A stretch of DNA of 64,000 nt from Escherichia phage vB_Eco_slurp01, in the sequence record LT603033; one strand, 5' to 3'. The notes under the pieces are model-generated. The model was not told where the DNA came from and ran no database searches. It saw only the letters and a list, made by a program, of their open reading frames with translations. Made by a program: the position numbers and the translations under genes. Shown here piece after piece: positions 9,344 through 22,765 of this stretch (its first letter is position 1; every line of letters starts with the position of its first letter).

Positions 9344-10015
9344 ATGAAACTTAATGCACACAGCAAACAATACCTTAAGCACTTTAAGTACCTCAATAGT
9401 ATTCAGGCAGAATCAGTTACATCTGCATATACGTATCACCCGAATGTACTAAAGAAACGAAATAAAAAGGAAAAATCCAGTACAAATGGAGTTAACGTAT
9501 CAAAGAACCTTGAATTGTACATGAAGAAAAATAATATAGCTGTTCATTATATGAATATCTATAATACTGATTTAAAAGTATTGAGTACTAATACGAGCAC
9601 AAAGGTACTAAAGAACGCATCCTTCATCATCAATATGCAGTTGGATAATACCCCGTGCACTTTAATGCTATACTTCGGGAATACATACTTCTTCGGGAAT
9701 TGTAACACCTCCCACGATGTCAATACAGCACAATTCCAAATGGGTGGCATATACTCTACTGATGCAGAAAAAGTACACGAGAATATGCACTTCTGGCAAG
9801 CACAACGTACAGAAGAAACTGATACAGTACTGCAATTCCTCAAAGAACTAGAACACAAAGAACTACAGGAAGAAGAACTATTCATGTACAGTACTGTAAT
9901 CGATAATCCAGTACTCTATAAAAACGCGTACAATCTGACAAAACATGTACAGGAAATTATCAGTACTAATAAGAAAATGCATCACCTCATTACGTATATT
10001 ACAAACTATGTATAA
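9344..10015 (+). CDS. Hypothetical protein (223 aa) embedded in family A array
   Basis: ORF track; AAAGGAAA RBS. Confidence 0.55.
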   Translation: MKLNAHSKQYLKHFKYLNSIQAESVTSAYTYHPNVLKKRNKKEKSSTNGVNVSKNLELYMKKNNIAVHYMNIYNTDLKVLSTNTSTKVLKNASFIINMQLDNTPCTLMLYFGNTYFFGNCNTSHDVNTAQFQMGGIYSTDAEKVHENMHFWQAQRTEETDTVLQFLKELEHKELQEEELFMYSTVIDNPVLYKNAYNLTKHVQEIISTNKKMHHLITYITNYV

Positions 10016-10190
10016 AGAATACTACCAAGAACATCTCCCAATGCATCTCCAACACCTTGTACCCAAAGAACCAATAGGAATAAAAGATCACGCAAAAATA
10101 ATGTTCCAACAATGTACTAAGTACACGCTCATATACGATGATAATCCATATATGCTGTACTACGTAGTAATGCTAACATTCAGGTACTAA
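10008..10190 (+). CDS. Small protein, family A (MYKEYYQEHLP...LTFRY)
   Basis: ORF 9945..10190 trimmed to family-type start. Confidence 0.55.
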   Translation: MYKEYYQEHLPMHLQHLVPKEPIGIKDHAKIMFQQCTKYTLIYDDNPYMLYYVVMLTFRY

Positions 10191-10191
10191 T

Positions 10192-10371
10192 ATGCACAAA
10201 CATAAAGAATTCTACCTCTCGTACCTTAATTCCGATATAGTAACATCCAATACCTTCAGTACTAAAATTATCTATAATGAATTAATAAAAGAATGTATTA
10301 AAGGTGCTATTAACCCTAAAGATACGTATGACTTGTACTATGCAGTACTAACCCTTGTTTTCACGAAATAA
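10192..10371 (+). CDS. Small protein, family A (59 aa, below ORF-track cutoff)
   Basis: Own translation MHKHKEFYLSYLN...LTLVFTK. Confidence 0.5.
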   Translation: MHKHKEFYLSYLNSDIVTSNTFSTKIIYNELIKECIKGAINPKDTYDLYYAVLTLVFTK

Positions 10372-10379
10372 CACATAAT

Positions 10380-10571
10380 ATGAATAACCACAAAGAATAC
10401 TACATAGAGAAACTCCCAATGTATCTCCAACACCTTGTACCAAACGTTGCATTGGGTATAGAAAAAAACTACGAAAAAGACTACTTCATTCAGTGCACTA
10501 AATCCTCGATATATATTGACGACTATAATCGAGTACTGTATCACATCCTTTTACTAATATATAGGTACTAA
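10380..10571 (+). CDS. Small protein, family A
   Basis: ORF track. Confidence 0.6.
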   Translation: MNNHKEYYIEKLPMYLQHLVPNVALGIEKNYEKDYFIQCTKSSIYIDDYNRVLYHILLLIYRY

Positions 10572-10572
10572 T

Positions 10573-10755
10573 ATGCACAAAGAATACTACACACAATTTC
10601 TCCCCAGCATTTTTGAACACTACGCCAGATACAAAGTCCCTATGGATAACGATTTGGCAGTACTGGGATTCAATAACTGCATAGAACGAAGTATAGAAAA
10701 TAGTAGTAGTTATGACCAGCTATATAACACTATCCTACTTATATTCAGGTACTAA
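10573..10755 (+). CDS. Small protein, family A
   Basis: ORF track. Confidence 0.6.
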   Translation: MHKEYYTQFLPSIFEHYARYKVPMDNDLAVLGFNNCIERSIENSSSYDQLYNTILLIFRY

Positions 10756-10756
10756 C

Positions 10757-10945
10757 ATGCATAAAGAATACTACACAAAATATTTCCCAATGTACCTCAG
10801 AACTAATCTATTAGATAAACCTCGCGGTATCAATGCACAAAATGATAAAGTGTACTTTACTATGTGCACTAAAGCATGTATACTAGATTTTGACAGCTAT
10901 CATCGAGTACTGTATCATACCCTGTACCTAGCTTTCGTATTCTAA
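10757..10945 (+). CDS. Small protein, family A
   Basis: ORF 10712..10945 trimmed to MHKEYYTKYF. Confidence 0.55.
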   Translation: MHKEYYTKYFPMYLRTNLLDKPRGINAQNDKVYFTMCTKACILDFDSYHRVLYHTLYLAFVF

Positions 10946-10954
10946 GAGAACAAT

Positions 10955-11140
10955 ATGCATAAAGAATTCTACTTAAGCCATCTCGATCTAAACTCCCAAA
11001 TGCTTATACCACTAATCCCAATAGATATCAAGGATAAGAAAAATACCGAACAATTCATTTACCATACACAGTGTGCGATCACCCCAAATTACATTCCATA
11101 TGAATTGTACTACATTATCGCCCTAATATATAGGTACTAA
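10955..11140 (+). CDS. Small protein, family A
   Basis: ORF track. Confidence 0.6.
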   Translation: MHKEFYLSHLDLNSQMLIPLIPIDIKDKKNTEQFIYHTQCAITPNYIPYELYYIIALIYRY

Positions 11141-11141
11141 T

Positions 11142-11327
11142 ATGCATAGAGAATACTACACACAATTTGTTAAAGGGAACTACAAACATGCCGTACCCAG
11201 AACCCCTTTAAATTCTCATGACCCAAGTACTATATTCTTGTTCCATGACGCAATACGTACAGTACTCAATACTAAAGATGAAGATGTGCAGTACGTATTC
11301 TTACTATTACTTATATACAGACACTAA
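11142..11327 (+). CDS. Small protein, family A
   Basis: ORF track. Confidence 0.6.
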   Translation: MHREYYTQFVKGNYKHAVPRTPLNSHDPSTIFLFHDAIRTVLNTKDEDVQYVFLLLLIYRH

Positions 11328-11332
11328 CTAAT

Positions 11333-11542
11333 ATGAATAAAGAACATAAAGAATTCTACTCCAAATACATAAGCCCCTCAGAACAAATGTTTCTAAGGAC
11401 TACTCCACCTTTAAGTACTAATACATTTTTCGGCAGAGTATGCTACAATAATTGTATTCAAATGACTTTAAACGCAAACGAAGATGGTAACAGTACTAAC
11501 CTGTACTCAGGTATCATAGGTATACTATTCCTGTATGAATAA
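11333..11542 (+). CDS. Small protein, family A
   Basis: ORF track; paralog of 7957..8166. Confidence 0.65.
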   Translation: MNKEHKEFYSKYISPSEQMFLRTTPPLSTNTFFGRVCYNNCIQMTLNANEDGNSTNLYSGIIGILFLYE

Positions 11543-11723
11543 TTACAAAGACTTCTATTTGAATACACTACCTACTGTACTTTCTCTAAGTGCTCAATGT
11601 AAAATCCCCCTGGATAATGCTTACGCCAGATATAGCTATTCCATAACTGTTAATCGATGTATAGAGAATCATTGCAGTACTAACCAGTACTATAACATAA
11701 TCCTACTTATATTCAGGTACTAA
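11535..11723 (+). CDS. Small protein, family A
   Basis: ORF track. Confidence 0.6.
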   Translation: MNNYKDFYLNTLPTVLSLSAQCKIPLDNAYARYSYSITVNRCIENHCSTNQYYNIILLIFRY

Positions 11724-11724
11724 T

Positions 11725-11907
11725 ATGAATAAAGAACATAAAGAATTCTATATACGAAAACTAACATTCGTCCCCGTAAGAATATATAAAGAATGCGACC
11801 CAAGATTATACCTATGGCACTTCAATGAGTGCATAAAAGATTCTATATACCCTAAGAACTATAAAGAACAATTGTGCTCAGTACTAACACTAGTACTATC
11901 ATATTAA
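11725..11907 (+). CDS. Small protein, family A
   Basis: ORF track. Confidence 0.6.
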   Translation: MNKEHKEFYIRKLTFVPVRIYKECDPRLYLWHFNECIKDSIYPKNYKEQLCSVLTLVLSY

Positions 11908-11922
11908 TTAATAGAGAATACT

Positions 11923-12123
11923 ATGTATAAAAACTTCTATATAAGTAAACTAAAAGAAAATGAACAAGTATGGATTAGATCTATAATTCCACTGGCATTT
12001 AATAGATATGCATTTAACAGATGTACCGAGATTGCTATAGACCCTTATAATATTAAAGAGAATGTACAGTATAATCAGTATAATCAGTACTACTATATCT
12101 TAATGATTATATATAGGAAGTAA
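11923..12123 (+). CDS. Small protein, family A (last member)
   Basis: ORF track. Confidence 0.6.
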   Translation: MYKNFYISKLKENEQVWIRSIIPLAFNRYAFNRCTEIAIDPYNIKENVQYNQYNQYYYILMIIYRK

Positions 12124-12303
12124 TATAGCTAGGGGAAGCTCCGTAGTGGAAGCATTATACAGGCTTTAACATATGTTGCATATGTTAAAATTCAGCCTGG
12201 ACAAATGCGATCACTAGGATTCTCCCCAGGCTAAACCCCGTAATCATAGGTAGTCATAAGTAATCATATATAAACATTTATATGAGCACCGTAGAATCAC
12301 AGA

Positions 12304-12512
12304 ATGATTATATATGATTCAGTACTGATTAGTATAGACAAGATTGCTCAAGAATGCACGGAAATGTGTGTGAATGATTCAGTACTGATTAGTATAGACA
12401 AGATTGCTCAAGAATGCACGGAAATGTGTGTGAATGATTCAGTACTGATTAGTATAGACAAGATTGCTCAAGAATGCACGGAAATGTGTGTGAATGATTC
12501 AGTACTGATATG
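12304..12512. repeat. Tandem direct repeat, 60-bp unit x ~3.5
   Basis: Unit GAATGATTCAGTACTGATTAGTATAGACAAGATTGCTCAAGAATGCACGGAAATGTGTGT repeated head-to-tail. Confidence 0.9.
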
Positions 12513-12656
12513 CCACTAAGTAGGCAGAGGAAGTCTGCCGTACTTTGTAGTTTCCAAGCTCCTTTTCCATTTTGCAAATTACATCAAATGTAATCAAAAG
12601 TAATCACGCAATGATTAGTACTGAATTATTACTTTCACCTTAATTACAATTACCCT

Positions 12657-12674
12657 TTTACCCTTCGGGGTAAA
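12657..12674 (+). other. Stable hairpin with UUCG-type tetraloop
   Basis: TTTACCC-TTCG-GGGTAAA perfect 7-bp stem. Confidence 0.5.
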
Positions 12675-12885
12675 ATTCAATTACCCCTTGAGGCTCCAGC
12701 AAAAAGTTGGTTAGTACTCCATCCTAAATCTCGATCCTAAAAATTTTGGAGTACCTATGAAATAAAAGTTGGATCTTCGAAAGTTGAAATTTACGTTGGG
12801 ACGTTTATGATTTGTGGGATATAATGATGTTTGTAGTCGGGTAGTTCTCAAGAATATCAGTACTGAATAATGAAAGAAAGCTATT

Positions 12886-12913
12886 GACATTATGATTCAG
12901 TACTGTATAATGT
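12886..12913 (+). promoter_or_regulatory. Sigma70-like promoter in non-coding hub
   Basis: TTGACA N16 TATAAT; no convincing ORF downstream. Confidence 0.5.
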
Positions 12914-13102
12914 TCTACATAGCTTCAAGGGGTGATGAGTTGCTGCGAACAATTCATTTACTCTACCTCCTGTCGTGAGACAGTACAGAAAAGATAGTTC
13001 CTCCTGTGGTGGTACATCTTTTTGAACCTCATATGAAAATCGTAATAACAGTACTGATATTAACAGAATGGTGTCAGTACTGATTTTAATCTAAAGCATT
13101 AT

Positions 13103-13122
13103 ACCACCAGCTTGTGCTGGTG
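13103..13122. other. Palindromic hairpin made of two inverted Chi octamers (CCACCAGC-TTGT-GCTGGTGG)
   Basis: Read directly; perfect 8-bp stem. Confidence 0.6.
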
Positions 13123-13238
13123 GATTCCCTCTAACAGTATTCAGTACTACATGATGGTCTTCATCCTCCTAGGGTAACATAGTGAGGGCTATGATGGCAG
13201 TACTGAATACTCCCTTTCAAAAGATAGATCTATGGTAT

Positions 13239-13440
13239 AGTACTGACGGATTTTGGGTGTAGTTACCCTGGATGGATTTTGGGCGTAGATATGTCTAGCC
13301 CTCCAGAAGTCTGGAAGTAAAGATGGCTATCCATCTAGACGGCTAAACGGCTAGATTTCTGGATGGCTGGATGGCTAGACGTTTGGACGGCTAAACGGCT
13401 AGATGGTTACACGTCTGGAAGTATAGACGGCTAAATCAAA
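13239..13440. repeat. Iteron-like cluster of short direct repeats
   Basis: GACGGCTAAACGGCTAGAT x2, GGATGGCT x3, TCTGGAAGTA x2, ATTTTGGGCGTA x2-3; AT-rich tract follows at 13441-13460. Confidence 0.6.
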
Positions 13441-14060
13441 ATTTTATTTTGTTTTTCCAATAGTTCCCCTACCGCGTGGGGATAGTTTCCCCGCAGTATC
13501 TGGAGTTAGATTTTTCTGAATCTGGAATCATTATCTTATAAACTGGGGGCAATGTCAACGACCTGGACGGATATTTTTAAAAATTTTTTCAGTACTGAAT
13601 TTTGGGCGTAACTATGCACCCGGTGGGCTTGAGTCTTTCTCGACTTGATGGAACTATTATACAGTACTGGAAAAATAAAGCAATACCCTGGATGAAAAAA
13701 GTTTTAATTAATTTGCTTGCCATCCTGGGCCGGACTATGGTACTATAATTCAGTACTGAGAAAGTGCGTTAACCTGCTAGGGTGCGGGAGTGTATCCTTT
13801 TTTTATATCTTGAATTTTGGACGGATCTTCCCACCCCCTGGGGTATCCGCTTTCTCGCGTCTATGTAGTAATTATACGCTTTTTCAGGATCAAGTCAATA
13901 CCTAAAAACAAAATAATTGAAAATAATTTAACGCGTTTAAACGGCCCGTAAAGCCCTGGAATGATTGGAATGGTGCAAATGTATAGCTTGGGTGTATTAA
14001 TGCGTTAGAATGCGTCTGAGGCCGTTTTACGGGGTGTAGTAGTGATTTGGTGGATTGATT

Positions 14061-14215
14061 CAGTACTGAATAATAGTACTCCTATATAGAAAGATAGTTC
14101 CCCTGGATGGTTGCAGTACTGAATAATAGTACTCCTATATAGAAAGATAGTTCCCCTGGATGGTTGCAGTACTGAATAATAGTTCCCCTATATAGAAAGA
14201 AAACTATTTTAAAAG
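14061..14215. repeat. Tandem direct repeat, 53-bp unit x ~3, immediately upstream of first early promoter
   Basis: CAGTACTGAATAATAGTACTCCTATATAGAAAGATAGTTCCCCTGGATGGTTG repeated. Confidence 0.85.
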
Positions 14216-14231
14216 TATTTGTAGAAAGTAC

Positions 14232-14259
14232 TTGCAAACTATGTTTAACGGCGTATAAT
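14232..14259 (+). promoter_or_regulatory. Early promoter, sigma70-like
   Basis: TTGCAA N16 TATAAT. Confidence 0.7.
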
Positions 14260-14272
14260 GTTTTACATCGAG

Positions 14273-14291
14273 AGCGGGAACACTTCCCGCT
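14273..14291 (+). other. Promoter-proximal hairpin (AGCGGGAA-CAC-TTCCCGCT)
   Basis: 8-bp stem immediately downstream of predicted start site; member of the recurrent hairpin class. Confidence 0.6.
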
Positions 14292-14314
14292 ACATATTAC
14301 GAGAGATTAAAACG

Positions 14315-14677
14315 ATGGCGACTCAAATCACTAAAATTATTGCTAACCTGGTTAACTTTCGCGACGAGATGAAAGATCTTCCGGCAGAAACGGTAAAAAT
14401 TCACATTGCAGCTTATCGGGAACTTATTGCAATGTTACCTCTTAAGCGTGAACAATACGCCGCTACCGTGATGCTTGATGCGATGATCCATAAGATGATC
14501 GCCAGTGATTTAACGATGGTTTATCAGTATATGGGCGAAAATTTCGCGGTGTATAGTAAACCAGTACCAGGAATGGAAAGTACAGAAGTATTACACGGTT
14601 TAAATTTAAAACAAGATGCATGGGATAATATGCCTCGTTTCCTGGTATGGGCTGACAGTGGCAAAATTTACGAATAA
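14315..14677 (+). CDS. Hypothetical early protein (120 aa)
   Basis: ORF 14258..14677 trimmed: upstream ATG lies inside the -10 element; GAGAGA RBS before MATQITK. Confidence 0.7.
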   Translation: MATQITKIIANLVNFRDEMKDLPAETVKIHIAAYRELIAMLPLKREQYAATVMLDAMIHKMIASDLTMVYQYMGENFAVYSKPVPGMESTEVLHGLNLKQDAWDNMPRFLVWADSGKIYE

Positions 14678-14691
14678 GTTTAATAAAGTAC

Positions 14692-14719
14692 TTGCAAACT
14701 ATGTTTAATGGCGTATAAT
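14692..14719 (+). promoter_or_regulatory. Early promoter
   Basis: TTGCAA N16 TATAAT; hairpin GTGGGGAA-TAG-TTCCCCAC at 14732-14750. Confidence 0.7.
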
Positions 14720-14770
14720 GTTTTACATCAGGTGGGGAATAGTTCCCCACTATATAAGAGGATTAAAAAA

Positions 14771-15010
14771 ATGGCTAAATCAAAAATGTTCTTAGGTCAC
14801 AAAAACAAAACTCATTGGAATGTAAGCCTTTGGATTAATAACGATGAATCATTATACCGGTTGGCCCTGGACTTTATTGCCGCCAATACTAATCGCAATG
14901 ATGCGGCCCGTCATATGATGTTATTTTTAGAACAGACTGGACAAGATAAAACACCGGACGGATTCAAATATAGCACTACTGCGATCCGTGCGGCAATGGT
15001 TGGAATGTAA
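14771..15010 (+). CDS. Hypothetical early protein (79 aa)
   Basis: ORF 14708..15010 trimmed to ATG after AAGAGGA RBS. Confidence 0.7.
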   Translation: MAKSKMFLGHKNKTHWNVSLWINNDESLYRLALDFIAANTNRNDAARHMMLFLEQTGQDKTPDGFKYSTTAIRAAMVGM

Positions 15011-15032
15011 TAGAATAGAATTTATTTAAAGT

Positions 15033-15061
15033 ACTATTGCACGGGGATAGTACTTTATAAT
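15033..15061 (+). promoter_or_regulatory. Degenerate early promoter (TATAAT present, -35 region shortened)
   Basis: Aligns with the promoter at 26483-26511 but has a deletion in the spacer. Confidence 0.4.
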
Positions 15062-15098
15062 AGTGTTTTATTCATACACCAACGATAAGGGCAACAGC

Positions 15099-15365
15099 AT
15101 GAATATTAAGTATTTTGCGACGCGTGAACAAGCTCGGATCGCCGCACGCCAGGACGGGGCAACGTTTAAAGATATGGGCGTACAATCGGAACGTGGTAAA
15201 CGTTGGGCCATTGTAAAGCGTAGTACCGCCAGATCATTACAGTACTGGTTAGCGGCCTTAAAAAGACCCGATAGTGTATCGCGACGAGTGGTAGAAATAA
15301 AGCTCGACCGAAAGGGCAACCGCGTGACCGTGTACCGTACTAAAAAGATTGCAGTACTTGAATAA
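15099..15365 (+). CDS. Hypothetical early protein (88 aa); paralog of 26556..26951
   Basis: Trimmed ORF; shared KYFATREQARIAAR...FKDMG...RKGNRVTVY. Confidence 0.7.
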   Translation: MNIKYFATREQARIAARQDGATFKDMGVQSERGKRWAIVKRSTARSLQYWLAALKRPDSVSRRVVEIKLDRKGNRVTVYRTKKIAVLE

Positions 15366-15373
15366 AAAGTACT

Positions 15374-15400
15374 TGCAAACTATGTTTAAAGGCGTATAAT
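15374..15400 (+). promoter_or_regulatory. Early promoter
   Basis: TTGCAA N15 TATAAT; hairpin GCGGGAA-CTC-TTCCCGC at 15415-15431. Confidence 0.7.
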
Positions 15401-15452
15401 GTTTTACATCGAGAGCGGGAACTCTTCCCGCCTATAACCTGGAGTAATAAAA

Positions 15453-15683
15453 ATGACTAATATGTATATGACTGAAGTTAAAACCGTAAAAGATACTACC
15501 ACGAATAAAACTACTTACTTACAGCGGATCTGTGGTGTATGGCAACGTATCAGCAAATCAAAGTACTTTAAATTAACATCATATGCAAACCGTTCGGATT
15601 CATTCAGTACTGAAATAAAAGGTAATAAAGTACACCAATACGGCACTTATTATTATTATAGCCTGGACGCGATTGCAGTATAA
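15453..15683 (+). CDS. Hypothetical early protein (76 aa)
   Basis: ORF track; GGAG RBS. Confidence 0.65.
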   Translation: MTNMYMTEVKTVKDTTTNKTTYLQRICGVWQRISKSKYFKLTSYANRSDSFSTEIKGNKVHQYGTYYYYSLDAIAV

Positions 15684-15713
15684 GCAGTTTACAAATCTTT
15701 ACAATTGCCGGTA

Positions 15714-15742
15714 TTGACTTATTTTGTCAGTACTGGCATAAT
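15714..15742 (+). promoter_or_regulatory. Promoter driving a non-coding stretch
   Basis: TTGACT N17 CATAAT; no ORF over 25 aa follows. Confidence 0.5.
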
Positions 15743-15744
15743 GT

Positions 15745-15925
15745 ATTCATTGGCAGATAAGCCGTAGCCCATAGGGTGCGGGAGTGTATCTATAGAAAAA
15801 GTAGTTTATTACAGTTACAATTGTGCACCCGGTGGGTTAGCTGTTGTCATGGGGTATATTATGCCAGTACTGGATAGTGCTGTCAATACCTTTTTACTAT
15901 TCAGTACTGAAAACTATTTTTAAAA
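15745..15925 (+). ncRNA. Candidate small non-coding RNA
   Basis: Promoter-driven, no ORF; contains inverted copies of the CCCAYNGGGTGC motif that could pair. Confidence 0.3.
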
Positions 15926-15930
15926 AGTAC

Positions 15931-15958
15931 TTGCAAACTATGTTTAAAGGCGTATAAT
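15931..15958 (+). promoter_or_regulatory. Early promoter (upstream member of a tandem pair)
   Basis: TTGCAA N16 TATAAT. Confidence 0.7.
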
Positions 15959-15965
15959 GTTTTAC

Positions 15966-16040
15966 ATCAGGACGGGGAACGAAATAAGTAACTCCCCATT
16001 AAGTAGCCCAGGAGTAAGGCACACGAAAAACTCCCCTGAT
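15966..16040 (+). other. Conserved ~75-nt structured leader element (copy 1 of 3)
   Basis: ATCAGG...CCTGAT closing helix plus internal GGGGA/TCCCC stem-loop; near-identical copy at 25361-25433, related copy at 18275-18385. Confidence 0.5.
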
Positions 16041-16047
16041 AAAATAG

Positions 16048-16076
16048 TTTGAAAATTGTTTTTAAAAGCGTATAAT
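16048..16076 (+). promoter_or_regulatory. Second promoter of tandem pair
   Basis: TTTGAA N17 TATAAT. Confidence 0.5.
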
Positions 16077-16108
16077 ACTTACATCAACTACTGAATGAGG
16101 GTTACAAA

Positions 16109-16720
16109 ATGAAAACTATCACTACTACTACTTTCGTTATGGATTTTTCTGAATTGAACGCAGAACAAAAAACGTCAGCTATCGAACTGGTTCGGGAACG
16201 TGAAAAAAACTCAAACGACAATTATTTTTCTGAAAGTGAAATTGAATACTATAAAGAAACAGTACTACCGGAATATGGCATTAATGACGCTGAAATACAA
16301 TTCAGTGGTTTTTGGTCCCAGGGTGACGGTGCATCAATCAGTACTGACCACGTTGACGCAGTGAAGTTTTTACGCAAGGTAAGAGCATTAACTAAGTATC
16401 GCTCAATCCGTCACCTGCTGAATGAAGATGATTTGGCGATGAGTGTAAAGCGTTCTCACTCTCACTACTCGCATGAGAACACTGTAAGCGGGTACATTGA
16501 ATCGGCTTACACTGATTTAACCGCAAAACAAGAAACGTTAGTTAATGAGCTTGAGGAACTACTCACTGAAACTATTCGTGAATTGTCACGCAAGTTGTAC
16601 CGTGATTTAGAGAATGCATATGAGGATCAATTCACTACTGAAAACATCGTAGCACTGATTGAGGGTAACGAGTATCAATTCAATGTTATTGATGGCGTAG
16701 TAGAATCAATCGAATATTAA
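16109..16720 (+). CDS. Hypothetical acidic protein (203 aa)
   Basis: ORF track; GAGGG RBS. Confidence 0.75.
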   Translation: MKTITTTTFVMDFSELNAEQKTSAIELVREREKNSNDNYFSESEIEYYKETVLPEYGINDAEIQFSGFWSQGDGASISTDHVDAVKFLRKVRALTKYRSIRHLLNEDDLAMSVKRSHSHYSHENTVSGYIESAYTDLTAKQETLVNELEELLTETIRELSRKLYRDLENAYEDQFTTENIVALIEGNEYQFNVIDGVVESIEY

Positions 16721-16732
16721 TTCAAAAAGTAC

Positions 16733-16760
16733 TGGACACTAAGCAATAAAGGCGTATAAT
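16733..16760 (+). promoter_or_regulatory. Early promoter
   Basis: TGGACA N16 TATAAT; hairpin AGCGGGAA-TAG-TTCCCGCT at 16774-16792. Confidence 0.6.
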
Positions 16761-16812
16761 ACTTTATATCGAGAGCGGGAATAGTTCCCGCTACTAATGA
16801 GGAATACTACAA

Positions 16813-16977
16813 ATGAATACTTTTACCTTCGCTCAATTGAACGCCCTGGATGTATTGTCTGATGCTTTGCGGGATGCAACTGAAAGCGGTTTATTTGACA
16901 ATGTTGACATTCACCCTGATGTAATTAATAATTTTTGTGATGCTATCGCAGAAGTACTGGAAGATCTAAAAAAATAA
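16813..16977 (+). CDS. Hypothetical small protein (54 aa, below ORF-track cutoff)
   Basis: Own translation MNTFTFAQLNALDVLSDALRDATESGLFDN...; GAGGAA RBS; promoter upstream. Confidence 0.5.
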   Translation: MNTFTFAQLNALDVLSDALRDATESGLFDNVDIHPDVINNFCDAIAEVLEDLKK

Positions 16978-16987
16978 TAGAAAGTAC

Positions 16988-17015
16988 TTGCAATTAGTTT
17001 TTAGTACTGTATAAT
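16988..17015 (+). promoter_or_regulatory. Early promoter
   Basis: TTGCAA N16 TATAAT; hairpin 17028-17047. Confidence 0.7.
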
Positions 17016-17065
17016 AGTTTACATAGAGGGGAGAAATGGTTCTCCCTGGTAATGAGGAAAATAAA

Positions 17066-17287
17066 ATGGCTAATATCACTACTCTTTCTCAACTGGAAGC
17101 ACTGGTTAAATCTATGCGGGAACATGCAGACAATATCGGCGTAAAAGATCCAGCCGTTTGCTTCTGCGACGAAATGAATGATGATACACTGGTAATAGCA
17201 GAAGTACAAGATATTTCTAACTATTCATCGCGTTACACTGGCGGCGTAGCAAATAAAGGTGACTTCTGTTTATACCTTACCAAATAA
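17066..17287 (+). CDS. Hypothetical early protein (73 aa)
   Basis: ORF 17036..17287 trimmed to MANITTLS after GAGGAAAA RBS. Confidence 0.65.
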   Translation: MANITTLSQLEALVKSMREHADNIGVKDPAVCFCDEMNDDTLVIAEVQDISNYSSRYTGGVANKGDFCLYLTK

Positions 17288-17292
17288 CAACG

Positions 17293-17322
17293 CGGGGAGA
17301 TAATAACTCCCCGTTACTTTTT
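17293..17322 (+). terminator. Intrinsic terminator
   Basis: CGGGGAG-ATAATAA-CTCCCCG then TTACTTTTTC. Confidence 0.7.
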
Positions 17323-17455
17323 CAGTACTGAATCATTTAATAGACGGATCTCGGCACCCTGTGGGTTAGTGACTGTATCGTCTTTATGTAGTAATTATGC
17401 CAGTACTGGATGCACTTGTCAACAACTATTTTTCAAATACTTTTTATTAAAATAC

Positions 17456-17483
17456 TTGCTAATAGTTTTTAAACGCGTATAAT
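17456..17483 (+). promoter_or_regulatory. Early promoter
   Basis: TTGCTA N16 TATAAT; hairpin GGGGAG-CGG-TTCCCC at 17494-17508. Confidence 0.6.
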
Positions 17484-17529
17484 GTTTTGCATAGGGGAGC
17501 GGTTCCCCTGGTAACTAAGGAATAAGAAA

Positions 17530-17766
17530 ATGCTTGAACAAATCAAATCAACGTCTGCTAATGTAACGGGAACGGTATCACACTTTATTGGTGATGAATC
17601 GCGGGGCGTTCCCTATTGTGCTGTACATGTAAACACTGAGGGTAACTACTGGTTTACGGTTTACGGATCATATTCATTTGGACGGCCAGGGCATCAAAAA
17701 ATTCTGGATAAAGTACAACCAACGGGTAAAAATATCACTGCCGAAATGTTTTATAAAAAATCATAA
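17530..17766 (+). CDS. Hypothetical early protein (78 aa)
   Basis: ORF track; TAAGGAATAAG RBS. Confidence 0.7.
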   Translation: MLEQIKSTSANVTGTVSHFIGDESRGVPYCAVHVNTEGNYWFTVYGSYSFGRPGHQKILDKVQPTGKNITAEMFYKKS

Positions 17767-17771
17767 AGTAC

Positions 17772-17799
17772 TTGATAATAGTTTTTAGTACTGTACAAT
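17772..17799 (+). promoter_or_regulatory. Early promoter
   Basis: TTGATA N16 TACAAT; hairpin GGGGGAG-CGG-TTCCCCC at 17814-17830. Confidence 0.6.
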
Positions 17800-17850
17800 A
17801 TTTTACATCGCACGGGGGAGCGGTTCCCCCTGGTAACTAAGGATAATCAA

Positions 17851-18150
17851 ATGAAAATTGCAATCATCGCCCTGGCTTTATCTGTTTCCTCTTTCGCTGT
17901 TAACGCGTCGTTAGATGTACCTAGTGAAAAATTCATTCAGTGTACTGTTGCGATGACAGATGAAAGTACTGGCGAGATTGTTTTAAAGGATTTAGAGATC
18001 CAGTCAGAAGCATTTAAAAGCGGCCCGTTCCATGAAGAAGACGAAAAAGGTAGCACGACAATTTATTACGATGTAAGTACTAAGCGTGGATCGGTCACGG
18101 TTATGGATACTGAGAAAGTAACGCACACCGGAGTAATTAACTGTTTATAA
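17851..18150 (+). CDS. Putative secreted/periplasmic small protein (99 aa)
   Basis: N-terminus MKIAIIALALSVSSFAVNA|S has signal-peptide character (basic n-region, hydrophobic core, AxA site). Confidence 0.7.
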   Translation: MKIAIIALALSVSSFAVNASLDVPSEKFIQCTVAMTDESTGEIVLKDLEIQSEAFKSGPFHEEDEKGSTTIYYDVSTKRGSVTVMDTEKVTHTGVINCL

Positions 18151-18167
18151 TATAGTACTGAATCACT

Positions 18168-18196
18168 AGCCCACCTTAAACAGTGGGCTTTTTTGT
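18168..18196 (+). terminator. Intrinsic terminator
   Basis: AGCCCAC-CTTAAACA-GTGGGCT + TTTTTT; identical copy at 18894. Confidence 0.8.
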
Positions 18197-18238
18197 TTTG
18201 TAGTACTGCATACTTTAAAAATAGTTTTAAAAAAGTAG

Positions 18239-18266
18239 TTGACATTACCACAAAAAGGCGTAGAAT
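18239..18266 (+). promoter_or_regulatory. Early promoter with long structured leader
   Basis: TTGACA N16 TAGAAT; ~110-nt leader 18275-18385 related to 15966 element. Confidence 0.65.
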
Positions 18267-18389
18267 GTATTACATCAAGACGGGGAGCACTAAGTAGACC
18301 GCCAGTAAGTCGAACGAAAAACTGGACACGTCGATAAAACTTTGATACACTAATAAACGTAAACTAAACTTTAATTGAGGATTTATAAA

Positions 18390-18872
18390 ATGGCTAATGT
18401 AAAATCATTCCTGAAAGCACTGATTTCAAACGATACTGTTATTGCTGCTGAATTGCTGGCTGAACTGGATAACGATACAATGAAAGCGGTACGCAACAAT
18501 TTTAACATTGCGTACAGTGAAGCTAAAGAACTGCAAGCCAAAAAGGTAGCAGAACTGGAAGAACAGAAAAAAGCCCGTGAAGCAGAACTACAAGCAACAA
18601 TTGAAAGTATTCAGGCGGCAGTGTCTGGATTGGATCTGGAAGTGGTTGTAGAAATGGCACATAAAGCCCTGGCGGTTAAGTACGGTGAAGATAAGCCGGA
18701 ATCTAAACCTAAAAAATGGATTCAAGAACGTGTTACTGTAGTACTTGATAACGGTGAAGAACATTTGATTCCTGTACGCGGTAACTGCATTGCGGTAGTA
18801 CTGGACGCTATCAAAGAAAGCGGTATGACTCGCGAGGAATGGATCGAAGCTCATCGCAAAGTTGAAGCATAA
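18390..18872 (+). CDS. Hypothetical protein with predicted coiled-coil N-terminal half (160 aa)
   Basis: ORF 18375..18872 trimmed to MANVKSF after GAGGA RBS. Confidence 0.7.
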   Translation: MANVKSFLKALISNDTVIAAELLAELDNDTMKAVRNNFNIAYSEAKELQAKKVAELEEQKKAREAELQATIESIQAAVSGLDLEVVVEMAHKALAVKYGEDKPESKPKKWIQERVTVVLDNGEEHLIPVRGNCIAVVLDAIKESGMTREEWIEAHRKVEA

Positions 18873-18893
18873 CAATTAAAGTACTGAATCAAT

Positions 18894-18921
18894 AGCCCAC
18901 CTTAAACAGTGGGCTTTTTTG
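18894..18921 (+). terminator. Intrinsic terminator (duplicate of 18168)
   Basis: Same hairpin + T-run. Confidence 0.8.
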
Positions 18922-19074
18922 TGTCTATAGTATTCCAGTCCACTAGCACCGCCTAGAATCGATTCTAACGCATTAAACTGATTATCTGATACATCGCCCT
19001 AGCTGGTGGCGTTAAGGTCGTTAGAAAGCGATTGAGAGTGTTTAAAGTATTTTGCAAAAAGTAATAAAAAGTAC

Positions 19075-19102
19075 TTGCATGATTAAGAGATTAGCGTATA
19101 AT
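19075..19102 (+). promoter_or_regulatory. Early promoter
   Basis: TTGCAT N16 TATAAT; hairpin ~19115-19132. Confidence 0.65.
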
Positions 19103-19156
19103 GTTTTACATCGAAAGGGGAAACGGTTCTCCTTCCAAATCAAAGGAATCAAAACA

Positions 19157-19384
19157 ATGGCTATTATCATTACTCGCGTATCTGGTACTACTGGCAATTC
19201 TTCTACTGTTGCAGTCATTACTAACAAGGCAGGTGCGGAATTGCAAAATGCAATGAATACCTGGGCCGTTAATGAGTTCGGTCAGTGGGCAAGTGTAGCA
19301 TACATTGAAACCTATCAAGTGCCGACCATTAGTTTAACGGATCTTGGTGTGGAACGTATCCTTTGCTTGGATGAATTAAATTAA
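19157..19384 (+). CDS. Hypothetical early protein (75 aa)
   Basis: ORF 19052..19384 trimmed to MAIIITRV after AAAGGAAT RBS. Confidence 0.65.
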   Translation: MAIIITRVSGTTGNSSTVAVITNKAGAELQNAMNTWAVNEFGQWASVAYIETYQVPTISLTDLGVERILCLDELN

Positions 19385-19392
19385 AAAAGTAC

Positions 19393-19420
19393 TTGCAAAG
19401 TAAATCGAATAAAGTATAAT
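19393..19420 (+). promoter_or_regulatory. Early promoter
   Basis: TTGCAA N16 TATAAT; hairpin GGGGAGAA-ATGA-TTCTCCCC at 19433-19452. Confidence 0.7.
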
Positions 19421-19469
19421 ACATTACATCAAGGGGAGAAATGATTCTCCCCACTACAAGGAAACTAAT

Positions 19470-19613
19470 ATGAAAACTTGTCAATGTGGTAAAAAATCTA
19501 TTACTGGTTTAAAGCGGGGCGTTGCTCTTTGCCAGTACCATTATAATTTACAAGTATGGGGTAAAGAATGGGCCGACCAGGTGGAAGCAATTAAGAAAGC
19601 AAAAAGTAAGTAA
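19470..19613 (+). CDS. Small Cys/His-containing protein (47 aa), possible zinc ribbon
   Basis: Own translation MKTCQCGKKSITGLKRGVALCQYHYNLQVWGKEW...; below ORF-track cutoff. Confidence 0.45.
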   Translation: MKTCQCGKKSITGLKRGVALCQYHYNLQVWGKEWADQVEAIKKAKSK

Positions 19614-19632
19614 AAATATTATCACAGTACTA

Positions 19633-19661
19633 TTGACATAGTTTGATAGTACTGGCATAAT
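19633..19661 (+). promoter_or_regulatory. Early promoter (class without downstream hairpin)
   Basis: TTGACA N17 CATAAT. Confidence 0.7.
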
Positions 19662-19702
19662 AGATTTTATCAAGACAACATATTAATTTAAGGAATACTA
19701 AA

Positions 19703-20026
19703 ATGGCTAAAACTATCATTAACACCGTTTCCCTGGCTGCAATCCGTGCAATCAATGTTGACGGTAAACGTTGGACTGATTCATATGGCAATACTTATCA
19801 TTCTTGTCATGTAAGCGTCGAACTGGATAACGGTTTGAATGTTCTGGCGGTTGAATCATTTACTTATGGCTATGAAGATGCATATCAACAAACGGCGTTA
19901 GATCTATTAAAGGAATCAGTAGACGGGCTTAATACTGATGAAACCTCCCTTACTCGTTTGTGCAATGATCTTAATATCCCGTTGCATTGTACTGTACAGA
20001 ATGTTAAACGCAAAAAAGATCTTTAA
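19703..20026 (+). CDS. Hypothetical early protein (107 aa); paralog of 26137..26460
   Basis: ORF track; shared RWTDSxGNTYHSC...FTYGY...VKRKKD. Confidence 0.75.
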   Translation: MAKTIINTVSLAAIRAINVDGKRWTDSYGNTYHSCHVSVELDNGLNVLAVESFTYGYEDAYQQTALDLLKESVDGLNTDETSLTRLCNDLNIPLHCTVQNVKRKKDL

Positions 20027-20106
20027 TTAGCTTTACTTTATGCAGATACTTTGATATAGTGTCTGCATAGGGGAAAGAAATTAAATTAACTTAAGAGGAT
20101 CGTATA

Positions 20107-20376
20107 ATGAAAAATATCAGTACTTTAATCGATGCAGGTACACATGTTCGGCGGTCTATGGTTGCAACCAGTACTACAAAACAAGTAGCAAGCGGTTATC
20201 TTGTATTTGTGCACGATGGTAAACTCCTGGAACGTTCAATCAATTTTGATGTTAAAAACAATTGCCGTTTTATTATCTTTAAGCGTGAACAATATAAAAT
20301 TGATTTGCCAGCGAAGCCCATTAGCGGGGCGTACAACGTGCAATCATTGTTTGAGCGTCAACCATACACCTATTGA
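20107..20376 (+). CDS. Hypothetical protein (89 aa)
   Basis: ORF track; AAGAGGA RBS. Confidence 0.65.
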   Translation: MKNISTLIDAGTHVRRSMVATSTTKQVASGYLVFVHDGKLLERSINFDVKNNCRFIIFKREQYKIDLPAKPISGAYNVQSLFERQPYTY

Positions 20377-20427
20377 TCAAATCATCGTTAGTGGTCGATT
20401 TAGGCCGCTTATATTGGGGATTATACC

Positions 20428-20700
20428 ATGAACGTTAATCAAGTACTAAATGAAGTTGAAAGCATCATTAAACCAATGAAACGTATTGATGCAATGCTAA
20501 CACCGGAAGAATGCCGCCTTTATGAGCGTTACAGCGTCGAACAAGTCCAGGCGATGGCTATGGCTACCCCTGCCGTTAAACAGCCTGAGAATGCGTTACA
20601 GGACGTTACAGGGGATTATATCATTAATCCAGTACTAGGGAAGATTACACCAATCACCGAAGAAGAAAAAGACTACTTAAGCCAGTACTTAAAAGGTTAA
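20428..20700 (+). CDS. Hypothetical protein (90 aa)
   Basis: ORF track. Confidence 0.6.
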   Translation: MNVNQVLNEVESIIKPMKRIDAMLTPEECRLYERYSVEQVQAMAMATPAVKQPENALQDVTGDYIINPVLGKITPITEEEKDYLSQYLKG

Positions 20701-20705
20701 TTAAT

Positions 20706-20915
20706 ATGCTTACTGTACAGGATAAGATCGACATCTTAAAGGTTAATATGTATGTGATTGATGCAGATCCTGAAAAAGTATTTGCATACGATGATTCTAA
20801 TCGTAGTCCTTTTTATTGTAGTCATGTAGTTGGATACGTGCCGTTAGCGTATGTTATCGAAAGAGTGGTTGATTCAGCATACAAACATTTTTTAGAAAAT
20901 AATACTTGCAATTAG
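20706..20915 (+). CDS. Hypothetical protein (69 aa)
   Basis: ORF track; stop lies inside the next promoter. Confidence 0.55.
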   Translation: MLTVQDKIDILKVNMYVIDADPEKVFAYDDSNRSPFYCSHVVGYVPLAYVIERVVDSAYKHFLENNTCN

Positions 20916-20933
20916 TTTTTAGTACTGTATAAT
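20906..20933 (+). promoter_or_regulatory. Early promoter
   Basis: TTGCAA N16 TATAAT; hairpin ~20946-20967. Confidence 0.7.
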
Positions 20934-20984
20934 AGTTTACATGAAGTGGAGAAATAGTTCTCCCCACTAATTAAGGAATATGAA

Positions 20985-21131
20985 ATGAAAGCATCAAAAA
21001 AGAGTACTAATAAGAAAGCACGTTCAACTTTAGATGGGGTATTCCCTTTGCGTTTTGTGGATGAAGTGGTTTCCTACCCGCTGGGGCTTACTCCTGAGAT
21101 GGTAGAAAGTTTACGTAAATCTAAAAAATAA
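20985..21131 (+). CDS. Hypothetical small basic protein (48 aa)
   Basis: Own translation MKASKKSTNKKARSTLDGVFPLRF...; below ORF-track cutoff. Confidence 0.45.
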   Translation: MKASKKSTNKKARSTLDGVFPLRFVDEVVSYPLGLTPEMVESLRKSKK

Positions 21132-21134
21132 TAC

Positions 21135-21162
21135 TTGCAATTAGTTTTTAGTACTGTATAAT
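21135..21162 (+). promoter_or_regulatory. Early promoter
   Basis: TTGCAA N16 TATAAT; hairpin 21175-21194. Confidence 0.7.
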
Positions 21163-21212
21163 AGTTTACATGAAGGGGAGAAATGATTCTCCCCAAGAAC
21201 AGGAGAAATAAA

Positions 21213-21365
21213 ATGAAACAATATAATGCTCGGTTTGATGTTACTATCGGTAACGGTAAAGGTCAATTTTCTTTCAGTACTCGACGCAGTTATACAGAAA
21301 ACTTCCTGCGTAATTGTGCACTGACCGCCGCTCAAATTAAACATTATTTTCAGGCTAAAAAATGA
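21213..21365 (+). CDS. Hypothetical small protein (50 aa)
   Basis: ORF 21183..21365 trimmed to MKQYNARF after AGGAGAAA RBS. Confidence 0.55.
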   Translation: MKQYNARFDVTIGNGKGQFSFSTRRSYTENFLRNCALTAAQIKHYFQAKK

Positions 21366-21451
21366 AATCATTAGCTTATTACAGTTCGGCCCTGGTCGTT
21401 GCATTGATCGCGGCGTTGTTAGTAACCTATCTATTCTTTATGGTGATTTAA
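21362..21451 (+). CDS. Tiny hydrophobic peptide (29 aa), predicted single transmembrane helix
   Basis: Own translation MKSLAYYSSALVVALIAALLVTYLFFMVI; ATGA coupling. Confidence 0.35.
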   Translation: MKSLAYYSSALVVALIAALLVTYLFFMVI

Positions 21452-21589
21452 ATGAATCCTAACGGTATAATTTACAGTACTCCTAAAACGAAAGCAGACA
21501 AGGTAAACGCTAAAAAAGCGAAAGTAAAGGAGTACATCAAGCAAGGCATGACGCGAAAGGCGGCGATTCTAAAAGCTAAAAATAAATGA
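21452..21589 (+). CDS. Small basic protein (45 aa)
   Basis: Own translation MNPNGIIYSTPKTKADKVNAKKAKVKEYIKQGMTRKAAILKAKNK. Confidence 0.4.
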   Translation: MNPNGIIYSTPKTKADKVNAKKAKVKEYIKQGMTRKAAILKAKNK

Positions 21590-21595
21590 AAAAAG

Positions 21596-21720
21596 TGGTT
21601 GACTTCGGTCAGCCATTTTGCTATTATATATTCATTGAGAGATAGCTCACTAGCCCACAGGGTGCAGGAGTGTATCTATTGTATAATGTTTGAGTACTGA
21701 AAACTATTTTTAAAAAAGTA
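21596..21720 (+). repeat. Repeated intergenic module (hairpin overlapping TTGACT-N17-TATTAT promoter + CCCACAGGGTGC motif), copy 1
   Basis: Other copies at 25196-25320, 28463-28600, 30726-30870. Confidence 0.7.
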
Positions 21721-21721
21721 C

Positions 21722-21749
21722 TTGAAAACTATCTCAATTGGCGTATAAT
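21722..21749 (+). promoter_or_regulatory. Early promoter
   Basis: TTGAAA N16 TATAAT; hairpin 21764-21780. Confidence 0.65.
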
Positions 21750-21800
21750 GTTTTACATCGCAAGGGGAAACGGTTTCCCCTGGTAATAAGGAAACGAATC

Positions 21801-22142
21801 ATGACTATCTCAATTGCTCAATCTAACTTTGAAAATGAAATCATCGCCCAGGTACTGCGTTTAAATGATGGTCGGGCCGAAATTAATTACGGTTTCAATT
21901 CAGGCGGTTGTGAAAACTATCAGTACTTTGTAACGGCTGATGGCGGTGTCCTGGGCATCAATACAGTTATTGTAAACATCCAAAAAATTAATTTCAATGA
22001 TCCAGACGATAGCCAGTTTTACATCACTGGCGTAGACGTGAACTATGAGGATGACTCACTAACTGATGATTACACTGGTGAGCGGTTAGAAAGTGCTTAT
22101 GGTGAAGATGATTATCAGTCAGTACCGGAAGATTTCGAATAA
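21801..22142 (+). CDS. Hypothetical early protein (113 aa)
   Basis: ORF 21738..22142 trimmed to MTISIAQ after AAGGAAAC RBS. Confidence 0.7.
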   Translation: MTISIAQSNFENEIIAQVLRLNDGRAEINYGFNSGGCENYQYFVTADGGVLGINTVIVNIQKINFNDPDDSQFYITGVDVNYEDDSLTDDYTGERLESAYGEDDYQSVPEDFE

Positions 22143-22155
22143 TATAAAAAATAGT

Positions 22156-22183
22156 TTGACAATAGATTATAGTACTGTATAAT
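22156..22183 (+). promoter_or_regulatory. Early promoter
   Basis: TTGACA N16 TATAAT; hairpin GGGGAGAA-TAG-TTCTCCCC at 22196-22214. Confidence 0.7.
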
Positions 22184-22234
22184 AGTTTACATCAAGGGGA
22201 GAATAGTTCTCCCCACTAACAGAGAAAAAACAAA

Positions 22235-22447
22235 ATGGCTAATATCCGCACTGTACTGAAAAATGCAAAACAAGTTTTATTTTCTGATCATGATACTTTC
22301 AACAAGGATATTACTGGCGTTCGGAATATCAAAGATGTAAAAAGTGTTATGGGTATCTATTGCAATATGAAACGTGTTGGAACGTTCGGCGACAAAGTAC
22401 TATACCAGGCAGGGGATTACAATTTTACACTGACTATCATTAACTAA
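22235..22447 (+). CDS. Hypothetical early protein (70 aa)
   Basis: ORF track. Confidence 0.7.
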   Translation: MANIRTVLKNAKQVLFSDHDTFNKDITGVRNIKDVKSVMGIYCNMKRVGTFGDKVLYQAGDYNFTLTIIN

Positions 22448-22466
22448 AAATATTATCACAGTACTA

Positions 22467-22495
22467 TTGACATAGTTTGATAGTACTGACATAAT
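22467..22495 (+). promoter_or_regulatory. Early promoter (no-hairpin class)
   Basis: TTGACA N17 CATAAT. Confidence 0.7.
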
Positions 22496-22530
22496 AAGTT
22501 TTATCAACTACACTACTAAGGAATTAAAAA

Positions 22531-22710
22531 ATGGCTATCATCGCAAAAACTGAAATCATCGGCCTGGATTCTATCATCATGACGTTTGAAGATCAAAAAG
22601 GTATGTATGTGGTTTCCTATGGTGATTATGTTCGGGAGTATGAAACGGTAGACGAAGCCTTTGAAAGTTACATTCGCCAGGTGAATAAAGCATACGACGA
22701 CTACCGCTAA
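22531..22710 (+). CDS. Hypothetical small protein (59 aa)
   Basis: Own translation MAIIAKTEIIGLDSIIMTFEDQKG...; AAGGAATT RBS. Confidence 0.5.
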   Translation: MAIIAKTEIIGLDSIIMTFEDQKGMYVVSYGDYVREYETVDEAFESYIRQVNKAYDDYR

Positions 22711-22737
22711 AATATATTACCAGTACTATTAAAGATA

Positions 22738-22765
22738 TTGACAACGTTTGATAGTACTGTATAAT
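22738..22765 (+). promoter_or_regulatory. Early promoter
   Basis: TTGACA N16 TATAAT. Confidence 0.7.

Follow-up and report, generated by a model that had tools for sequence, protein, structure and literature searches.

The window analysed here is a stretch of 64,000 nucleotides from Escherichia phage vB_Eco_slurp01 (LT603033), in which a 60-bp tandem repeat lies within a non-coding hub of about 2 kb that matches 35 database records and also contains other repeat families. A 4-kb query around the repeat had 89-96% identity to Asteriusvirus jumbo coliphages (such as 121Q, PBECO4, G17, E9.1 and SD-2_S15), and on this comparison the source phage is an Asteriusvirus, a 121Q/PBECO4-like jumbo coliphage. 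Hand-curated records (G17, PBECO4 and 121Q) leave approximately 1.9 kb unannotated here, automatic annotation pipelines place tiny ORFs across the same 1.9 kb in relatives, and the genes around the hub encode small hypothetical proteins in all annotated relatives. Genes upstream of the repeat array read towards it, and plus-strand genes restart downstream at 14258.

Further upstream, six paralogous genes of about 370-430 aa occupy 258-7443 on the minus strand and form the sole large minus-strand block near the genome end; in fEgEco12, the syntenic block at this position belongs to an array of 14 genes that carry the annotation chromosome condensation regulator (RCC1-like) or DNA condensation protein. 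Approximately 20 tandem paralogous ORFs of roughly 60 aa each lie on the plus strand at 7957-12123; their gene content differs between relatives, their GC skew is negative (-0.14 to -0.25) despite the plus strand, and their C-terminal codons repeatedly spell AGTACT (…SVLT…). A strong stem-loop (12130-12240, about -48 kcal/mol over 130 nt) separates the last small ORF from the decamer array described below. Its right arm, TGTTAAAATTCAGCCTGG, is invariant, its left arm varies among relatives with pairing kept (CATATG with CATATG, CAATT with AATTG, CATCT with AGATG), and it has no Rfam match; possible roles are those of a terminator or of a structural element in the DNA.

The repeat proper is a perfect tandem direct repeat at 12314-12509, for which Tandem Repeats Finder reported a head-to-tail period of 60 bp, 3.3 copies, 100% matches, 0 indels and a score of 392, and an identity check at period 60 returned identical limits. 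Three full units (12314-12373, 12374-12433 and 12434-12493) are closed by a partial unit of 16 bp (12494-12509), which gives a copy number of 3.27 as represented in one assembly only. The unit is ATGATTCAGTACTGATTAGTATAGACAAGATTGCTCAAGAATGCACGGAAATGTGTGTGA, its three copies have zero differences at any position, and a perfect period-60 repeat of 196 bp is far beyond chance. The single-strand folding of the unit was no better than that of shuffled sequences (z = +0.77). A preliminary description of this DNA had recognised the perfect head-to-tail unit, which is fully borne out; its estimate of about 3.5 copies is to be lowered to the 3.27 measured, and the limits it gave (12304-12512) are coordinates belonging to an ORF.

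This 71-aa ORF (12304-12519, plus strand) is the repeat read in frame from an ATG. No Shine-Dalgarno-like sequence was present in the sequence upstream of the ATG, no Pfam match above cut-off was obtained for this ORF or for two adjacent small ORFs, and the counterpart in relatives is shortened to about 31 aa, or replaced or absent. The ORF is an artefact of the repeat, as had been proposed in the preliminary description on account of its missing ribosome-binding site, and the array is non-coding; a coding role is excluded for practical purposes. Neither a tRNA nor an Rfam family reaching the gathering score was found on scanning of the whole window.

Copy number of the repeat in related phages

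The copy number of the unit was compared in 17 relatives read as DNA and in 35 matching records judged by match length, and the 3.27-copy array was found in none of the 17 and none of the 35. In the relatives that were read, no more than one unit is present, with its first 16 bp (ATGATTCAGTACTGAT) repeated after it. The nearest to the array are E9.1 and SD-2_S15 with 1.27 copies; the unit copy is shorter by 10 bp in G17 and PBECO4 and only partial in WPEC3, fEgEco12 and SHEFM2K, and unrelated sequence takes its place in 121Q, BF17, TH47, UE-S1 and ph0011. Match lengths in the 35 records fit these classes and reached the full query length in none. Exact-pattern scans for a second full 60-bp unit in IMG/VR had no matches, and those for the cut-site core (see below) retrieved 121Q only from IMG/VR and nothing from JGI metagenomes and GTDB genomes, so these nearly empty scans provided no further material on copy-number variation.

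The phage analysed here corresponds to the E9.1 type plus two units, and the flanks of its array differ by 3-5% from the nearest relatives. As judged by this comparison, the array is a strain-specific expansion, with two extra copies of a segment that is single in close relatives. Because the array is bounded by the 16-bp direct repeat ATGATTCAGTACTGAT, it arose by replication slippage or unequal recombination between the flanks, and the zero differences between copies point to either a recent event or homogenisation. The protein-binding array suggested in the preliminary description, along with a check of copy number in related genomes, is on that check not a conserved, evolved one: the array is unique to this genome, and relatives have at most 1.27 copies, fragments or nothing.

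Genome ends and the direct terminal repeat

Long direct terminal repeats (DTRs) have been reported for several related phages. The linear genome of fEgEco12 (374,733 bp) has DTRs of 20,993 bp according to PhageTerm and restriction digests (PMC13070987), the DTR of Sharanji is 20,668 bp by PhageTerm (PMC11895373), and G17 has approximately 20 kb of terminal redundancy by coverage (PMC6563267). Position 1 of fEgEco12 recurs at 353,741 of its own record and aligns to window position 12519. Altogether, five DTR-bearing records from different laboratories define this end, since all of them start or end with AGTAGGCAGAGGAAGTCTGCC and map to 12519: it is position 1 in fEgEco12, E9.1 and vB_Ec-M-J (the last with an annotated DTR at 1-21,525), and the record end in G17 and WPEC3, both in reverse complement. 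The right DTR end maps to 32218 in fEgEco12, G17 and E9.1.

One copy of a 19,700-bp DTR (12519-32218, plus strand), with ends mapped from relatives, is thus contained in the window, preceded by the right unique end of the genome (1-12518) and followed by the left unique region. Its first 1.7 kb are non-coding, and it carries early genes driven by sigma-70 promoters. The left cut-site core is GATATGCCACTA/AGTAGGCAGAGGAAGTCTGCC (12507-12539, plus strand, five DTR records; a slash marks the cut throughout), with base 12519 as the left physical end, and the right cut site is GGGCGGGTAACCT/TAGCGACTTCG (32206-32229, plus strand; fEgEco12, G17 and E9.1), with 32218 as the right physical end. By alignment to these records, the virion DNA is shown to have a DTR of about 20 kb with fixed ends, left at 12519 and right at 32218, and each physical genome end can be assigned to a single base. 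Outside the left cut, 9 bp separate it from the end of the array (...TCAGTACTGATATGCCACTA/AGTAGGCAG...).

The right cut is kept across genera in the phages Kae01 and CBB (...AAGGSCRGTNAYSCT/TAGCSA). When both sites are read from outside to inside, left and right are alike (sRCTA/AG) and in inverted orientation, the left and right sites being CCACTA/AG and TCGCTA/AG in Asteriusvirus, CCGCTA/TA and GGCTA/AG in Kae01, and CCGCTA/TA and TCGCTA/AG in CBB. In the classical T7 model, opposite-strand nicks at both boundaries are followed by strand-displacement synthesis through the repeat. The inverted pair of cuts suggests nicks on opposite strands, as in that model of terminal-repeat duplication, a likeness that concerns two independent sites only and has modest statistical weight.

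In the CMSTMSU record (MH494197.1), which is of low quality with many 1-bp deletions, the sequence turns unrelated at about 2790, exactly at the left-terminus base, as expected at a physical end; this break is probably an assembly join there. The terminal 26 nt of the DTR (12519-12544, plus strand) can form a snap-back hairpin from nucleotide 1 (dG -6.9 kcal/mol, z = -4.6), which is weakened by single changes in TH47 and not kept in A4 and is therefore not relied upon.

Other repeats of the hub lie inside the DTR. Approximately 13 tandem octamers (GGCTAGAC, GGCTAAAC, GGCTGGAT and others) at 13335-13433, or 815-915 bp inside the left end, are iteron-like and 90-94% conserved in relatives. A 53-bp tandem repeat (14061-14200, 2.6 copies, 97% matches) with copies beginning CAGTACTGAATAATAGTACT lies just upstream of the first DTR gene (14258), and in several relatives the start of its unit is found again at intervals of about 53 bp. 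The segment AGTACTCCATCCTAAATC...TTTTGGAGTACC (about 12713-12757) recurs in the Klebsiella phage fENko-Kae01, and CBB has only TTTTGGAGTACC.

Decamer register and palindrome outside the left cut

Conservation steps exactly at the left cut although both sides are non-coding. In 15 relatives, the 250 bp outside the cut have 20-60% identity to the window, and the first 1.4 kb inside it (12519-13918) have 95-99%, which is above neighbouring coding DNA. The hypervariable stretch outside, composed of degenerate decamers, extends from a conserved anchor, GGACAAATGCGATCACTAGGATTCT at 12199, to the cut (12199-12518, 320 bp here), and its length was determined in 17 genomes. The distance is 190 bp in G17, PBECO4, 121Q and JNE01; 200 bp in E9.1, SD-2_S15 and A4; 210 bp in ph0011; 220 bp in WPEC3, SHEFM2K, fEgEco12 and Turkey5; 240 bp in UE-S1; 260 bp in TH47; and 320 bp in the phage analysed here, and one extra A at the cut makes it 191 bp in vB_Ec-M-J and 221 bp in BF17. 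The length outside the cut therefore changes only in 10-bp steps between 190 and 320 bp (+1 in two genomes), and at least five or six separate indels lie behind the length classes: several measure 10 bp, two 30 bp and one 120 bp. In one of the two 30-bp cases a hairpin with no relation to the local repeats was inserted, and even there the 10-bp step is kept. Length differences in the inside flank (-31, -1, +10, +22 and +31 bp) have no such quantisation.

The same period is visible in the sequence itself. Self-similarity at lag 10 over the 200 bp outside the cut reaches z = 4.3-6.8 in seven relatives and is absent inside the cut in six of the seven, A4 alone having z = 3.7. When it is split into rows of ten nucleotides, starting at the cut and moving outwards, the sequence resolves into degenerate decamers (CGTAATCATA, ACAGAATGAT, TCAGTACTGA, CAAGAATGCA and others), the row at the cut being TATGCCACTA, and the register stops exactly at the cut. 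The 60-bp unit represents six such rows, and all relatives whose junction is intact have an array of this 10-bp period filling the 190-320 bp beyond the cut. As a proxy for intrinsic bending, AA/TT phasing was assessed at periods of 10.0 and 10.5 bp and was not significant outside the cut.

One decamer in each unit is the 10-bp palindrome TCAGTACTGA, whose four copies (12319-12328, 12379-12388, 12439-12448 and 12499-12508) start at -200, -140, -80 and -20 from the cut, in exact 10-bp register. Within one mismatch, the window has 51 such sites versus 2.1 expected, 12 of them in 12-14 kb, and the hub is the densest palindrome cluster of the window; free-standing copies are also found in the non-coding leader of the DTR. 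The cut-proximal copy (12499-12508) is the conserved one in the comparison with relatives: 17 of 18 Asteriusvirus genomes, this phage included, have CAGTACTG at a distance of 19-29 bp ahead of the cut, and CCRCTA/ occurs at the cut in 17 of 18 as well as in fENko-Kae01 and CBB. The junction of CMSTMSU is rearranged and has neither a cut-proximal CAGTACTG nor CCRCTA/.

The DTR of the Pectobacterium phage CBB has been mapped by coverage (PMC5259590), and that of fENko-Kae01 by PhageTerm. The junction reads TTCAGTACTT-ACCCCCTTCCGCTA/TATC in fENko-Kae01 and TTCAGTACTG-TTGACCCCTTCCGCTA/TATC in CBB, so that TTCAGTACT followed by G or T stands at about -22 and -24, respectively, with CCGCTA/TATC 8-10 nt later, and two or three further AGTACT sites lie within 125 bp outside the cut in both phages. 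By alignment, the palindrome is shown to adjoin the left cut (at approximately 20-30 bp) in three genera. A full-text literature search for the palindrome returned incidental primer or motif strings only.

The core of the palindrome is also a component of early promoters. The plus strand of the DTR has ten perfect sigma-70 consensus sites (12/12); these promoters, at least ten in all, lie at 12884-30911 (e.g., 12884, 22156, 22738, 24473, 25782, 26052 and 28913), with the consensus TTGACA-N9-AGTACTG-TATAAT, which continues downstream as ...TTACATCAAGG. Of 28 promoter-like sites inspected, 20 have AGTACT within the -35/spacer region or immediately next to it, the spacer being the usual place, and AGTACTG directly adjoins the -10 box in the majority of strong early promoters, where it may serve as an operator or an extended -10-like contact. 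No promoter-like site with at least nine of 12 matches was present in 12304-12512. The 60-bp unit contains the AGTACTG spacer element, and its hexamers at early-promoter spacing match only two and three of six consensus positions (by eye); it lacks a usable -35 or -10 box and is therefore not a promoter.

Many CAGTACTG sites were also observed at 48600-57000 within a paralogous plus-strand gene family, where they appear to encode a recurring Y-S-V-L-(D/E) peptide (by eye, with the frame presumed). If so, the surplus of the palindrome across the genome would be due in part to coding and not to regulation.

Possible roles of the array

Taken as a functional element, the array points to a packaging or cutting signal rather than a replication origin. 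The preliminary description had suggested an origin, a partition site or a packaging signal; of these, a packaging signal agrees with the setting, with the array 9 bp outside the left end and its units repeating the palindrome adjacent to the cut, and an origin is poorly supported. The array adjoins a physical genome end, that is, a concatemer junction, and the conserved element beside the cut is CAGTACTG together with CCRCTA/ and not the multi-copy array. In 121Q and ph0011 a single palindrome is present near the cut, which implies that the extra copies are dispensable. The chances appear to be about even that the palindromes are binding sites of a dimeric protein that places the cut, with extra in-register copies being tolerated. 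The small terminase subunit or another junction-binding factor would be the candidate binder; it would position a strand-specific nick at CCACTA/AGTAGG, with a matching opposite-strand nick at the right boundary (TCGCTA/AGGTTA), and strand-displacement synthesis would then regenerate the DTR as in the T7 model. The expansion would add two in-register sites, at -140 and -200, and might be tolerated or mildly modulatory because the 10-bp register is kept.

Several observations complicate this packaging reading. The palindrome is not specific to the terminus, and its occurrence in early-promoter spacers across the DTR means that the protein binding it may be a transcription factor rather than a terminase. 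Genomes also differ in how far the nearest palindrome lies from the cut (-19 in some, -28 in others). In addition, slippage within decamer repeats, and not selection for helical phase, could have produced the 10-bp steps; with 10.5 bp to a turn, a length difference of 130 bp would not hold phase.

Among known systems, the T7/T3 concatemer junction is the closest analogue by layout. T7 has specificity sequences near its termini, and its maturation begins at the concatemer junction (PMC3276506). The junction described here resembles that of T7/T3 in its fixed, non-permuted direct terminal repeat with site-specific cuts at both boundaries, in the short imperfect-repeat arrays flanking the terminal repeat and in a hairpin-forming sequence at one end. 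Dunn and Studier reportedly described in 1983 the SRL and SRR heptamer arrays that flank the T7 terminal repeat. However, the DTR is 160 bp in T7 and 19.7 kb here, heptamers are replaced here by a 10-bp period with a 10-bp palindrome, early transcription relies on the host RNA polymerase, and the replication and packaging genes are T4-like and not T7-like. In SPP1 pac (pacL-pacC-pacR) and lambda cos (cosQ-cosN-cosB), the cut is flanked by repeated binding sites of the small terminase, some of them on the unpackaged side, and the geometry between site and nick matters. Unlike the present junction, these phages use headful or cohesive-end packaging without a long DTR and share no sequence similarity with it; here, terminase binding is putative, and neither an IHF site beside the cut nor A-tract phasing is present, the sole IHF consensus site of the hub being at 13434, far from the array. 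[quoted passage not shown] Its repeats, however, are internal to the terminal repeat and eight DnaA boxes are among them, whereas the array here is outside the DTR and the hub lacks a DnaA box, so that the T5 region resembles the DTR-internal part of the hub and not the 60-bp array.

The main alternative, possible though with clearly less than even probability, is that the array is a neutral minisatellite, in which an unconstrained spacer of old decamers slips freely, the triplication is recent and functionless, and only the last 20-30 bp matter. The restriction of the array to this genome, the position of the region as the most variable of its neighbourhood and the perfect identity of the copies, consistent with a recent origin, all agree with such neutrality, the 16-bp flanking direct repeat offers a simple slippage mechanism, and decamer self-similarity would give 10-bp steps mechanically. 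Nevertheless, the 30-bp hairpin insertion obeys the step without being related to the decamers, the seven length classes leave the register only by +1 in a homopolymer, which is tighter than free drift predicts, and several upstream AGTACT palindromes are shared by three genera outside the cut, where the sequence has otherwise turned over completely.

A rather unlikely explanation is that an early-gene regulator that binds AGTACTG in promoter spacers also coats the junction as an operator array, or as a roadblock which keeps transcription of the small-ORF cluster from running on into the DTR or pauses RNA polymerase, thereby triggering maturation in a T7-like way. The placement of AGTACTG against the -10 box in most strong early promoters, the densest palindrome cluster being in the hub and the upstream genes pointing at the array are in line with it, and pausing of T7 RNA polymerase at the concatemer junction starts packaging, according to work cited in PMC3276506. 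On the other hand, the unit lacks a usable -35 or -10 box, the promoter motif may be an RNA polymerase contact (extended -10-like TG) instead of an operator, and the ending of the register exactly at the cut is left unexplained. Such a role overlaps with the packaging reading rather than excluding it. A joint version, of fairly low probability, is that the decamer-registered TCAGTACTGA array might be the landing pad of a junction-binding protein that also binds AGTACTG of early promoters. This protein would be the small terminase or a new factor common to Rak2-like jumbo phages, and would fix the nick position via helical register, so that length could change only in 10-bp quanta.

A replication origin, with the repeats as initiator-bound iterons and unwinding nearby, is very improbable. 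Tandem direct repeats do occur here in a 2-kb non-coding hub together with other repeat families, and GC skew changes sign at about 12 kb. In T4-like recombination-dependent replication, moreover, genome ends can prime synthesis, which would speak for initiation at the DTR boundaries. However, the array is conserved neither in copy number nor in presence, no DnaA box (TTWTNCACA) was found in 12101-14300, and no initiator gene is annotated adjacent to it in annotated relatives. The skew flip is the edge of a local 22-kb negative block (about 18 kb of minus-strand genes), with positive values again further upstream and no genome-wide V. The iterons of P1 oriR and lambda ori are likewise head-to-tail direct repeats in non-coding DNA, but their units are approximately 19-22 bp (17-22 bp for iterons in general) and not 60 bp, and the present array differs from iteron origins in being perfectly identical, strain-specific and without an initiator gene, DnaA boxes or a genome-wide skew signal. 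A partition site has no support: this is a lytic phage, and no par genes are annotated in the neighbourhoods of the array in the phage records compared. Finally, a genuine 71-aa repeat protein encoded at 12304-12519 can practically be dismissed, since beyond its ATG-initiated ORF and the short ORFs called here by automatic annotators in some relatives, there is neither a ribosome-binding site nor a family match above cut-off, relatives lack the ORF or have a version of about 31 aa, the manually curated records carry no annotation here, and the stop codon of the ORF spans the genome end.

The tandem repeat per se is probably a minor polymorphism, which could act as a natural strain-typing marker; the value of this ordinary recent expansion is that it flags an uncharacterised end-forming region of these jumbo phages. 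No cis-acting packaging or end-forming signal is known to have been described for the Rak2-like jumbo phages (Asteriusvirus, Mimasvirus and relatives). The Asteriusvirus and Rak2-like papers on fEgEco12, Sharanji, G17 and CBB report only DTRs of about 20 kb, and none of the junction repeats, the palindrome and the cut-site consensus is described in them. Here, both cut sites are described with base precision and across genera, together with a conserved palindrome at the left cut and a flank whose length moves in 10-bp steps only. These features should provide a testable handle on the generation of very long terminal repeats, on phage engineering (e.g., safe insertion points and packageable vectors) and on the right genome start and orientation in annotation. 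If the landing-pad version were true, the protein concerned would couple the switching-off of early transcription with the onset of genome maturation.
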